Of a stretch of 64,000 bases of DNA, positions 21,207-24,521 are shown piece after piece. The notes under the pieces were generated by a model. The model did not search any database, had not been told where the DNA came from, and worked only from the letters and a program-made list of their open reading frames with translations. The DNA comes from Pirellulales bacterium (GTDB lineage: Bacteria; Planctomycetota; Planctomycetia; Pirellulales; JAICIG01). The stretch's first letter is position 1, and every line of letters starts with the position of its first letter. Location: the NCBI GenBank assembly GCA_040901675.1, contig JBBDYJ010000014.1, positions 39,305 through 103,304 of the forward strand, given 5' to 3'. The translations under genes were made by a program, and so were the position numbers.

Positions 21207-24200
21207 TCACTCCTTGATCACGTTGCAGACAAACACCTTGGCCTCGTGGATGGTGACGTTGGGGTCGCCCACCAGCGCCGACAAATCGTTGGCCACGTCG
21301 CCGGTGCTCACGCCCTTGTAGCCCCAGTGCCAGGGGAGGCCCACGTGGTGCACCGATCGGTCCTTGAGGCGGTAGGGGCGGATGCGGCCCGTCACCAGCG
21401 CCCTGGCCCGGATCGAGCCGCGGGGAGTGGCAATGCGCACCCAACCGGTGTTCTCGACGCCAAGTTCCTGGGCGTGCTCGGGACTCATCTCGCAGAATAG
21501 CTCGGGCTGAAGCTCCGCCAGCCAAGGCAGCCAGCGGGTCATCGCGCCGGCCGTGTGATGCTCCGTGAGCCGGTAGGTCGAGAGCACGTGCGGATAATCC
21601 GGGTCGGCCACCTTGGCGTAGGCATTGCCGGGAATGTCCCAGACCAGCGTGGCCGGGTTGGTTTGCTGCCGATAAACGGCGTTGCGCACCGGCGACTCGT
21701 AAGGCTCGTAGTGCGCCGGCAGGGGGCCATCGACCAGCCCCTGCGGCACGAAAAGCCAGCCCTTGCCGTCGGCCTTCATGATGAACGGATCGGTGCCGCT
21801 GTGGTAATCGAGGCCCACGCCGTTGGGTTCGGCCTTTGCGGTGGGCGGCTTGGTCAGCACGAAGTCGGGCACGTCGAGTCCGGACCACCGCTTGGCGGCG
21901 GCGTCCCAGTAGACGTAGCCGCGCATCGCGGGGCCGCCGGCCTGGGCGTGTTCTCCGGCGAGCCGGCCTTCCTTGGCCCAGGGCTCGCCTTGCAAATCGG
22001 CCGAGGCGCGGTTGTACATCAGACGGCGGTTGGCCGGCCAGGCGAAGCCCCAGCCCAGTGCCACCCAGTCGTCGCCGCTGCGGTTGGCGGCGTGGTTGTG
22101 GCCGCCGGGATGTTCCGCCGTGGGGGCGTAGATGCCGCTGTAAATCCAGGCCCCGCACGCCGTCGAACCGTCGTCCGCCAACTCGCCGAACGATGCCAAC
22201 GGCTTCCCCTCCAGCGGCTTGTTCTCACTCCACAGGTAGCCGTTGATTTCCTTGAGGATCAACTCGGCCGACGGTTCGTCCTTGATCCGCCAATCGGCGT
22301 TGGCTCGCTCGTCGACGTAGTTCCAAACCAGGGCCTGGATGGGCCGGTCGCGCTTCAGTCTGCTGCCGGCGTAGCGCTGGCGGAGCAGGCGGCCCAGGTG
22401 AACGGTGAACCAGATGTCGGAGCGGGCGTGTTCGGGGGGATCGGCGGCCTTATGGTGCCACTGGACCAGCCGCTGGGTGTTGGTGAAGCTGCCCTCCATC
22501 TCCGGGACGGCGGCGGCCGGCAGGAAAAAGACCTCGGTGTTGATGTCCTTGGTCTTGAGCTTGCCGCTGTTCACCTCGGGCGAGTCCTTCCAAAAGGTGG
22601 CGGTCTCCGTCTCATAGGGGTCGCGGACCACCAGCCAGTCGAGCCTGGCCAGGGCCTCGCGCTGAAACGCCGCATTCTGGCCGCCCACCGCCGGGTTCTG
22701 GCCAATGCAAAAGAAGCCCTTGATCTTGCCCTCGTGCATGGCCACGAACATCGGCAGGTGCGAATGGTCGCCCACGCTCTTGGGCAGATAGTCGTAGGCA
22801 TAATCGTTGTCCGCGGTGGCGTCGTCGCCGAACCAGGCCTTGAGCTGGCTGACGATGAACTTGGGAAAGTTCGACCAGTACGACGTAGGCGTCGTCTCGG
22901 TGTCGATGTAATCGGCCAGCGTGTCGTGCTTGGCCAGGGCGCTGGGCGCGGCCAGGTAACCAGGGTGCAGGTTGTAGAGCGTGGCGATGTCAGTCGAGCC
23001 CTGGATGGTGGCGTGGCCCCGCAGCGCGAGGATGCCGCCGCCCGGCCGGCCGATGTTGCCCAGCAGCAACTGCAGGATCGAGGCGGCCCGGATCGTCTGC
23101 ACGCCGGTCGTGTGCTGCGTCCAGCCGACCGCGTAGCAGATGGCGCCGGTGCGGTCCGGCCCCGCGTTGTCCACGAGCGTCCGGGCGACCCGCAGGAACG
23201 TGTCGGGCGGCGTGCCGCACACCTGCTGCACCAGCTCCGGCGTGTACCGGGCGTAGTGCTGGCGGAGGATCTGGAAGACACAGCGGGAGTGTTCGAGCGA
23301 CGGGTCCTCTGTGGGCCGCGGTCCGACCAGCTTGGCCACCCGGGCGGCGAACGACTCCGGCCGGCCCTCGCCCGGCTCGCCGGTGACCTCTTCGGGGGCG
23401 TCCGCGGGAGGCTCGGACTCGTAGCGCCATTTCGTCGGGTCGTACTTCCGCTTGTCCGCGTCGAAGCCGGAGAACAGGCCGTCCAGCTCTTCGGTGTCCT
23501 GAAAATCGTCGGCAATCAGCGTGGCGGCGTTGGTGTAGTGGACCAGGTAGTCGCGGAAGAACCGCTCACGGGCCGTGAGGTCGCGCTCGGCTTTCGCGAA
23601 GATCGGCGCGTGCTGCTGGAGCACATGCCGGATCAGGGCGCCGAGGAACACAATGTCGCTGCCCGCCCGCAGCGGGGCGTAGATGTCGGCCATGGCCGAA
23701 GTGCGGGTGAAGCGGGGGTCGACGTGGATCAGCGTGGCCGGATCGGCGGCCCGCGTCTTGGCCTGCATGACCCAGCGGAAGGCGACCGGGTGGCACTCCG
23801 CCATGTTCGAGCCCATGATCAGGATGCTGTCGGCATGCTTCATGTCCATGGCGAAGGTCGTGGCGCCGCCGCGGCCAAAGGAAGTGCCCAGACCGGGCAC
23901 GGTGGCGCTGTGTCATATCCGGGCCTGGTTTTCGAGATAGACTATGCCCAGGGCCCGCATCAGCTTGCAGTGCACGTAGTTCCACTCGTTGTCGTTGGTC
24001 GCGCCGCCCAGCGAGGCGATCCCCAGCGTGTGGTTCACCTTCTTTTTGATTGGCTGTCCTGATTCATCCGTGGTCTGCCACCCCTCGCGGAAGGTGGCGT
24101 CGCGCGTTGTCTGAACCAGCTCGGCGATGCGGTTCATGGCCCAGTCGAGCGTCTTGGTCTTGTCCCAGTCGGTCGCCCCCGGCGCGCGGTGCCACACCCG

Positions 24201-24521
24201 GGTGACGCGGAGCGGGTTGACGGCGAGCTGGTAGGTGGCCGCCCCCTTAGGGCAGAGCGTGCCCCGGCTGACCGGGCTTTCGGGATCGCCTTCGATGTTG
24301 ACGATCTTGCCGCGGCGGACGCTGACGAGCTGGCCGCAGCCGACCGCGCAGTACGGGCAGATGCTGGGCACCTCGCGGGTATTGGCGAACTTGAAGCGGC
24401 CCGTCTCGGCCTGGGCCGCCCGCAGGTCGAGGCCCAGTCCCAGCAGGCCGCCCAGCGCGAAGCCTCCGCCTACCGAATGCCGCAGGAAATCGCGTCGGTT
24501 CGGGTCCCTGATGTCGGGCAT
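21207..24521 (-). CDS. fdhA: Formate dehydrogenase catalytic subunit (molybdopterin; Tat signal), selenocysteine-containing with in-frame UGA at 23915-23913
   Basis: RRDFLRHS Tat motif; CPYCAVGC [4Fe-4S] motif; ..ENQARI-U-HSATVPGLGTSFGRGG aligns with the Sec site of FdnG/FdoG; the two ORF-track pieces are separated only by TGA; AAGGAGG RBS before the ATG at 24521. Confidence 0.85.
23850..23915 (-). promoter_or_regulatory. Bacterial SECIS-like hairpin immediately 3' of the Sec UGA in fdhA mRNA
   Basis: 12 nt after UGA: stem GUGCCC/GGGCAC with apical loop GGUCU, resembling the E. coli fdhF/fdnG SECIS apical loop. Confidence 0.5.

Follow-up and report, generated by a model that had tools for sequence, protein, structure and literature searches.

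A conserved in-frame UGA and adjoining SECIS hairpin indicate a selenocysteine-containing, Tat-exported formate dehydrogenase subunit in a Pirellulales bacterium

The 64,000-nucleotide stretch of contig JBBDYJ010000014.1 of a Pirellulales bacterium analyzed here (the window) carries on its minus strand a formate dehydrogenase (FDH) gene, fdhA, that is interrupted by an in-frame TGA. The open reading frames (ORFs) on either side of this TGA very probably constitute a single gene (24521..21207) for a periplasmic FDH catalytic subunit that is exported by the twin-arginine translocation (Tat) pathway and has selenocysteine (Sec) as residue 203. This assignment is carried by the conservation of the TGA among orthologues from many phyla, by purifying selection on both parts of the gene, and by a covarying hairpin just downstream of the TGA that has the properties of a bacterial selenocysteine insertion sequence (SECIS). 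The elements of the gene are the following.

21207..24521, minus strand: fdhA, FDH alpha subunit (molybdo/tungstopterin), 1104 codons including the predicted Sec203; from the translation and family NF041513.
24529..24535, minus strand: Shine-Dalgarno-like AAGGAGG, 7 nt 5' of the fdhA ATG; read from the sequence.
24408..24521, minus strand: predicted Tat signal peptide, residues 1-38 of FdhA (..NRRDFLRH.. to ..RAAQA|E); from the translation.
23913..23915, minus strand: UGA codon 203, predicted to be read as Sec, a putative active-site Mo/W ligand; from the alignment to 6SDR and TGA in 73/80 orthologous loci.
23884..23900, minus strand: putative SECIS apical hairpin, with the 5' arm GUGCCC at 23900-23895, the loop GGUCU at 23894-23890 and the 3' arm GGGCAC at 23889-23884.
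23857..23918, minus strand: region matched by Rfam SECIS_3 (RF01989) at 31.7 bits; it takes in the UGA and a weak lower stem.

The read-through frame extends from an ATG at 24521 to a terminal TGA at 21209-21207, and the TGA at 23915-23913 is its sole internal stop, with no other stop or frameshift in the 1104 codons. A mechanical ORF list breaks the gene into a piece of 202 amino acids (23913..24521) and a piece of 897 amino acids that starts from a GTG (21207..23900). The AAGGAGG upstream of the ATG would serve as the ribosome-binding (Shine-Dalgarno) site. The translated N-terminus contains NRRDFLRH as its twin-arginine motif, followed by a hydrophobic stretch and AQA, after which a probable cleavage site (RAAQA|E) is followed by CPYCAVGC...C, a CxxCxxxC...C [4Fe-4S] motif. 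A Tat signal fits the presence of fdhE in the same operon and the periplasmic location of FDH-N-type enzymes. When the joined 1104-residue protein is scored with the Sec entered as C, it reaches 1429.5 bits against the NCBIfam family NF041513 ('formate_DH_Act'; curated cut-off 1400) and 981.4 bits against TIGR01553 (FDH-N alpha; cut-off 814.2). By these scores the joined protein is an FDH alpha subunit, encoded by one gene and not by two.

The position of the TGA within the protein is that of the catalytic residue of known enzymes. A structure search with the N-terminal 265 residues returned Desulfovibrio vulgaris FdhA as the top match (6SDR and others, E about 1e-74), along with Desulfovibrio gigas FDH (1H0H) and Escherichia coli FdnG (1KQF, E = 4.9e-59). 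In the printed alignment the TGA is placed on the Sec (printed as X) of D. vulgaris FdhA, within QARI-X-HSPTVP, and codon 203 and His204 align with the X-H of 6SDR and with the C-H of the variant 9QM0. Read with Sec, the surrounding peptide is ..ENQARI-U-HSATVPGLGTSFGR. A sequence-only reading of the window had proposed that an in-frame TGA at a Sec position splits fdhA and that the hairpin GUGCCC-GGUCU-GGGCAC follows twelve nt later; the split and the hairpin prove exact in coordinates and description, and the alignment to 6SDR bears out the Sec position.

The TGA is a conserved character of the gene. The closest genome-collection matches are metagenome-assembled genomes (MAGs) of Gemmataceae, with 72-73% protein identity. 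In a set of 80 orthologous loci, restricted to one genome per species, the aligned codon 203 is TGA in 73 loci and TGC in the remaining 7. The set spans Planctomycetota (Gemmataceae, Isosphaeraceae), Nitrospirota, Chloroflexota, Gemmatimonadota, Actinomycetota, Acidobacteriota, relatives of Geobacter and others. The protein database mirrors this pattern: 119 of the 120 best homologues are fragments of ~850-970 amino acids that start just after the Sec codon and cover the last ~80% of the query, as was to be expected from the prediction that automated annotation would divide the gene. Of these fragments, 77 have V/M-PGLGT.. as their N-terminus, which places their start at the Val codon four codons past the TGA, and the others begin at later start codons, mostly the next Met. 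The only full-length homologue among the 120 (P0089) has Cys at the Sec position (NQARL-C-HSSTV).

In one Gemmataceae MAG (STL-PLA15, locus L013, about 10621) the TGA is retained, but the reading frame is broken a few codons beyond it (..NQARI*HSARCPVWAPLL). An assembly indel within the SECIS sequence is the probable cause, a real frameshift the alternative.

An in-frame stop could also mean that fdhA is an inactivated pseudogene, the TGA having arisen by nonsense mutation or by a sequencing error, and the genes of the Sec machinery were indeed not found in the window. A decaying gene, however, would not share its stop with 73 of 80 orthologues from many phyla, nor with 119 of the 120 closest database homologues, in which a TGA is inferred from the point at which they were called. 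The ratio of nonsynonymous to synonymous substitution rates (Ka/Ks) relative to four Planctomycete orthologues is 0.15-0.29 before the TGA and 0.09-0.28 after it, that is, about 0.1-0.3 both upstream and downstream. Since Ka/Ks stays within 0.09-0.29 on either side, both halves of the gene are judged to be under purifying selection. Together with the covariation of the adjoining hairpin and the lack of further lesions in 1104 codons, this renders a pseudogene extremely improbable. TGA is, furthermore, the terminator of fdhA itself, fdhB, nrfD and the small ORF of the operon, and the genome code is therefore one without TGA as a sense codon. Because of the conserved TGA, the Ka/Ks values and the use of TGA as the usual stop, a pseudogene, a sequencing error and a code reassignment are ruled out to the extent that sequence permits.

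The hairpin is separated from the TGA by a spacer of 12 nt (CACAGCGCCACC, 23912-23901) and, for the 40 nt counted from the UGA onward, is the minimum free energy structure (-11.5 kcal/mol). The consensus for bacterial SECIS elements (bSECIS) comprises an apical loop of 3-9 nt whose upper stem has 4-16 bp, a G in loop position 1 or 2 that is usually followed by G or U, a distance of 16-37 nt from the UGA to the apical loop, and a folding energy of at most -7.5 kcal/mol (PMC13188914). The hairpin agrees with it on all counts, having a 5-nt loop (GGUCU) on 6 bp, with an alternative drawing in which a G-U pair closes a loop of 3 nt, a loop that begins with GGU, a UGA-to-loop distance of 18 nt (the 12-nt spacer plus the 6-nt 5' arm), and an energy for the 40 nt that lies below the limit.

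The strongest support for the hairpin is comparative. In a gap-free alignment of the 73 TGA-bearing orthologues its six pairs are formed in 99.5% of the cells. Alignment columns 24 and 36, which pair with each other, are the third positions of a Val and a Gly codon, both synonymous, and the pair appears as C-G in 41 sequences, G-C in 17, U-A in 11, U-G in 3 and G-U in 1, with none unpaired. None of 500 column shuffles reached the observed covariation score, and pairing dropped to 30-64% in a control in which the 3' arm was slid by 1-3 columns. RNAalifold, unprompted, predicts the identical six pairs. The loop is equally constrained: positions 2 and 3 (G and U) are invariant in 73/73, while position 1 has G in 59 orthologues and A in the other 14. 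The loop is mostly GGUCU, with AGUCU or AGUUU in a minority, and after the change from G to A the last U could still form the closing pair. The hairpin of the window is identical to the clade consensus. The combination of TGA and hairpin exceeds what chance would produce, because the TGA recurs in 73 of 80 loci and the compensatory changes fall at synonymous sites.

The seven Cys-type orthologues provide an internal contrast. In these, only 3-5 of the 6 pairs are possible, the loop has become GGCCU, GGGCU or GCGCU, and the 40-nt folds are different and unremarkable. Such decay is what would be expected once SelB binding is no longer needed. Homologues with Cys and no UGA had been named beforehand as a finding that would speak against a selenoprotein; they form a minority (7/80), and their loss of the hairpin follows the known Sec-to-Cys pattern and does not refute it. 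Sec-to-Cys replacements with remnant SECIS-like structures, as seen here, have been described for FdhA elsewhere (PMC1794560). Taken together, these comparisons support the hairpin as a SECIS element, and both the binding of SelB and hairpin-dependent read-through are predicted. The SECIS-like character assigned to the hairpin from the single sequence thus finds agreement in the bSECIS model, in the covariation and in a full-length, although sub-threshold, match to SECIS_3.

A second, different Sec-type FDH gene (CNRT-U-HAPSVVGL, FdhF-like) is present in three Chloroflexia MAG loci (L021 at 5645, L027 at 3548 and L029 at 3066). It has its own hairpin, GUCGUC-GGUCU-GACGGC, and lies 6-7 kb upstream of the fdhA orthologue.

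A truly split gene, in which translation stops at the TGA and restarts at the GTG at 23900 so that a 202-amino-acid Tat/FeS fragment and an 897-amino-acid fragment assemble, corresponds exactly to what gene callers produce. However, this GTG is a conserved Val codon within the hairpin and is not preceded by a Shine-Dalgarno sequence, and the product would lose the residue aligned with the metal-ligating Sec or Cys of solved FDHs. The Cys-type orthologues, moreover, are continuous single polypeptides, and a split would leave the selection on a SelB-type hairpin unexplained. A gene in two parts has, on this evidence, only a minute probability.

Several observations weigh against the assignment of Sec to codon 203. 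The fold energy of the hairpin is unremarkable for GC-rich sequence (z = -0.76 for 40 nt and -2.32 for 25 nt), and in a 59-nt context a competing long-range fold beats the hairpin energetically. The match to SECIS_3 is full-length, but at 31.7 bits (E = 6e-6, 111 nt searched) it does not reach the gathering score of 63, and just 61% of the cells of its lower stem are paired in this clade. At the gathering threshold, the Rfam scan of the whole window gave no SECIS_3 match. As for the Sec machinery, no tRNA-Sec was found in the 64-kb window by ARAGORN and Rfam, which found 20 tRNAs. Neither Pfam and NCBIfam scans of ~55 window ORFs nor tblastn with SelA, SelB and SelD of Streptomyces (E <= 1e-3) detected SelA, SelB or SelD in the window. 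In the flanks (+/-10 kb) of the Planctomycete orthologues L002-L005 and L013, tRNA-Sec, selA, selB and selD were likewise not found, the last three by the same tblastn search.

The case for the SECIS was built on the comparative data because the z-scores are weak and the 59-nt fold differs. An extended SECIS with the lower stem of SECIS_3 is not claimed, given its 61% pairing, and the claim is confined to the apical hairpin. The Sec machinery is found next to the gene in other lineages. A tRNA-Sec lies <=10 kb from the fdhA orthologue in 19 of the 60 loci scanned, and tblastn places SelD within the same distance in 23 loci, compared with 22 for SelB and 22 for SelA. An example is Streptomyces sp. 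NBC_00631 (L063), where the fdh genes are followed by selD (383 bits), tRNA-Sec, a selB-like ORF and selA (403 bits). Because tRNA-Sec and selD, selB and selA adjoin the orthologue in ~20 relatives, the fdhA family is regarded as a bona fide selenoprotein family. Complete sets of Sec-insertion genes have been reported for Gemmata obscuriglobus and Isosphaera pallida, and in another Planctomycete the sel genes are co-localized neither with each other nor with fdhA (PMC4807772). Since Planctomycete sel genes are not always clustered, their absence from a 64-kb window is uninformative.

These data also bear on a read-through that inserts something other than Sec, such as Cys via a mis-charged tRNA(Sec) or Trp by near-cognate suppression, in a lineage whose selenium supply or Sec machinery has been lost or is lacking. 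Consistent with this, the machinery was located neither in the window nor in the Planctomycete flanks, and Cys is functional at this position in 7 of 80 orthologues. Yet the SECIS of the window is intact and equals the clade consensus, whereas the lineages that switched to Cys lost the hairpin, and a complete, not always clustered Sec machinery has been reported in related Planctomycetes (PMC4807772). Non-Sec decoding is accordingly considered very improbable. There is a similarly slim chance that this cross-phylum FdhA clade represents a variant in which SelB recognizes a minimal apical hairpin of 6-7 bp that has no conserved lower stem, with the Planctomycete Sec machinery being distant or, less likely, absent, the UGA then being decoded otherwise. 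If this were true, a conserved UGA and SECIS kept without Sec machinery would be the only truly new variant.

Two candidates for SelA in the window were rejected. A cysteine desulfurase of the NifS/IscS type (55041-56195) scores far below the cut-off of the selenocysteine-lyase model. An ORF of 464 amino acids just downstream of fdhE (16279-17673, minus strand), considered for its size, has no Pfam match and no homologue in related loci. Its third-position GC is poorer than that of the overlapping plus-strand ORFs 16447-16800 and 16822-17523, one of which has FG-GAP repeats, and it is probably a GC-rich shadow ORF and not a gene.

With Sec at residue 203 as the preferred reading, synthesis and function of FdhA can be envisaged as follows. 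The UGA at 23915-23913 would be decoded rather than taken as a stop, by the established bacterial mechanism. By analogy to E. coli, SelB would bind at the apical loop and bulge as the ribosome approaches; here, the loop located 18 nt past the UGA, with its G and U exposed, would bind SelB-GTP carrying Sec-tRNA(Sec), which would be delivered to UGA203 in the ribosomal A site. The full-length FdhA would then bind a Mo/W-bis-pterin cofactor with the selenium (selenol) as a metal ligand, and would be exported via Tat together with FdhB, with FdhE aiding maturation and export. Electrons from formate would pass along the iron-sulfur chain of FdhB to the NrfD-type subunit and into the quinone pool. 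The actual insertion of Sec, the identity of the metal, the coupling to quinone and the presence of selA, selB, selC and selD elsewhere in the genome are inferences.

The genes downstream of fdhA agree with such a pathway and are arranged on the minus strand in the order fdhA-fdhB-nrfD-small ORF-fdhE.

20316..21182, minus strand: fdhB, iron-sulfur beta subunit with four clusters and a membrane anchor at its C-terminus; Fer4_11/Fer4_7 matches and a hydrophobic C-terminus in the translation.
19240..20319, minus strand: NrfD/PsrC-type integral membrane subunit, 359 amino acids; PF03916 on the identical gene in locus L001 and weak NrfD/TtrC NCBIfam matches.
18881..19243, minus strand: 120-amino-acid ORF, Ala/Leu/Arg-rich, flanked by nrfD and fdhE, with translational coupling to each of them.
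18004..18888, minus strand: fdhE, FDH accessory (Tat-linked maturation) protein; PF24859, PF24860, and TIGR01562 at E = 2e-19.

FdhB matches TIGR01582 (FDH-beta) at E = 2e-48, under the cut-off of that model. Homologues of fdhB follow fdhA in 69 loci, and an NrfD-type gene, whose product is likely to interact with quinone, was found in 43. The gene order is the one given in the sequence-only reading, which had also described the whole operon as tightly coupled by ATGA overlaps. Such overlaps are present at the fdhB/nrfD and nrfD/small ORF junctions, whereas fdhA and fdhB are separated by a 24-nt spacer and the small ORF and fdhE share an 8-nt overlap (GTGGTTGA). A likeness to FDH-N holds for the Sec-type alpha subunit but not for the gamma subunit: no FdnI-like (dihaem cytochrome b) gene was identified among the five operon genes, the gene after fdhB being of the NrfD/PsrC type, so that the complex is not a strict equivalent of FdnGHI. 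The 120-amino-acid ORF has no family match in the profile scan. Conserved counterparts, 60-63% identical, occupy the corresponding position in the Gemmataceae loci L002 (15373-15669) and L005 (15349-15675) alone, and the ORF may encode a lineage-specific FDH accessory protein.

On the other side of fdhA, a divergent ORF of 96 amino acids (24804-25094, plus strand) begins ~280 bp upstream of the fdhA start and aligns with the myo-inositol oxygenase (MIOX) model over the final 70 positions alone (180-249 of 249), with no further MIOX sequence in its upstream frames. It looks like a truncated gene remnant, and the FDH operon may have a boundary here that was created by rearrangement or insertion.

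Elsewhere, the window has a GC content of about 64% and encodes DUF1501 and DUF1559 proteins, which are characteristic of Planctomycetes. It contains 19 tRNA genes on the minus strand in two blocks, 29879-30513 with six and 32993-34484 with thirteen, which include tRNA-Ile(UAU) and three tRNA-Arg, one of these being tRNA-Arg(GCG). Two ORFs lie between the blocks, and one of them (31451-32551) encodes an SPFH/Band-7 protein. The tRNA-UAU of Planctomycete genomes has been discussed previously (PMC4807772). A match to the Rfam model group-II-D1D4-6 (45397-45511, minus strand; 77.5 bits) compresses all 225 model positions into 115 nt and is located inside a 588-amino-acid ORF that has a weak TPR match only. 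The window scans revealed neither a domain V/VI (RF00029) match nor a reverse-transcriptase ORF, and the element may represent a group II intron that is degenerate or has no ORF. Finally, a cobalamin riboswitch (61682-61866, minus strand; 85.8 bits) is located directly 5' of a gene for a TonB-dependent receptor (59578-61644, Plug and beta-barrel), a BtuB-like arrangement of the ordinary kind.

Among bacterial selenoproteins FdhA is the most widespread (PMC1794560), and the use of Sec in Planctomycetes, including Gemmata, has been reported before (PMC4807772). The feature described here is thus already known; it is a regular member of a curated family and raises no new question. Its practical consequence is that the gene should be annotated as one coding sequence with selenocysteine at codon 203, and not as two coding sequences or a pseudogene. 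It further implies selenium use, and formate oxidation or CO2 reduction at the periplasmic face of the membrane, in this Planctomycete.

The nearest known relatives are the members of the NF041513 clade from Actinomycetota, Chloroflexota, Nitrospirota and Gemmataceae. These have the same ENQARI-U-HS(A/S)TVPGLG motif and the same UGA with a GUNCCC-GGUCU-GGGNAC hairpin, and FdhB and an NrfD-type subunit are likewise encoded downstream. In ~20 of these relatives, mostly Actinomycetota, selD, tRNA-Sec, selB and selA adjoin the FDH genes, unlike in the window and the other Planctomycete loci, while the only related loci that show the 120-amino-acid ORF between nrfD and fdhE are those of Gemmataceae. 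The same active-site motif, QARI-U-HS-TVP, is found in FdhAB of D. vulgaris Hildenborough (W/Sec; 6SDR/6SDV) and in D. gigas FDH (1H0H). The Desulfovibrio FdhAB is likewise periplasmic and Tat-exported, but consists of a soluble alpha-beta dimer with cytochrome c as electron acceptor, whereas the window encodes a membrane-anchored FdhB, an NrfD-type subunit and fdhE. FDH-N and FDH-O of E. coli (FdnGHI and FdoGHI) also combine a Sec-containing, Tat-exported alpha subunit with a four-cluster beta subunit bearing a C-terminal anchor and with the accessory protein FdhE, and their SECIS (SECIS_3-like) similarly presents a G-U-containing apical loop ~18 nt after the UGA. They differ in that the gamma subunit of FDH-N is the dihaem cytochrome b FdnI instead of an NrfD/PsrC-type protein, and in the SECIS itself, as the SECIS_3 match of the window falls below gathering and the lower stem is not conserved in its clade. 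Both points of difference, the NrfD-type subunit and the lack of a conserved lower stem, recur in many orthologues.

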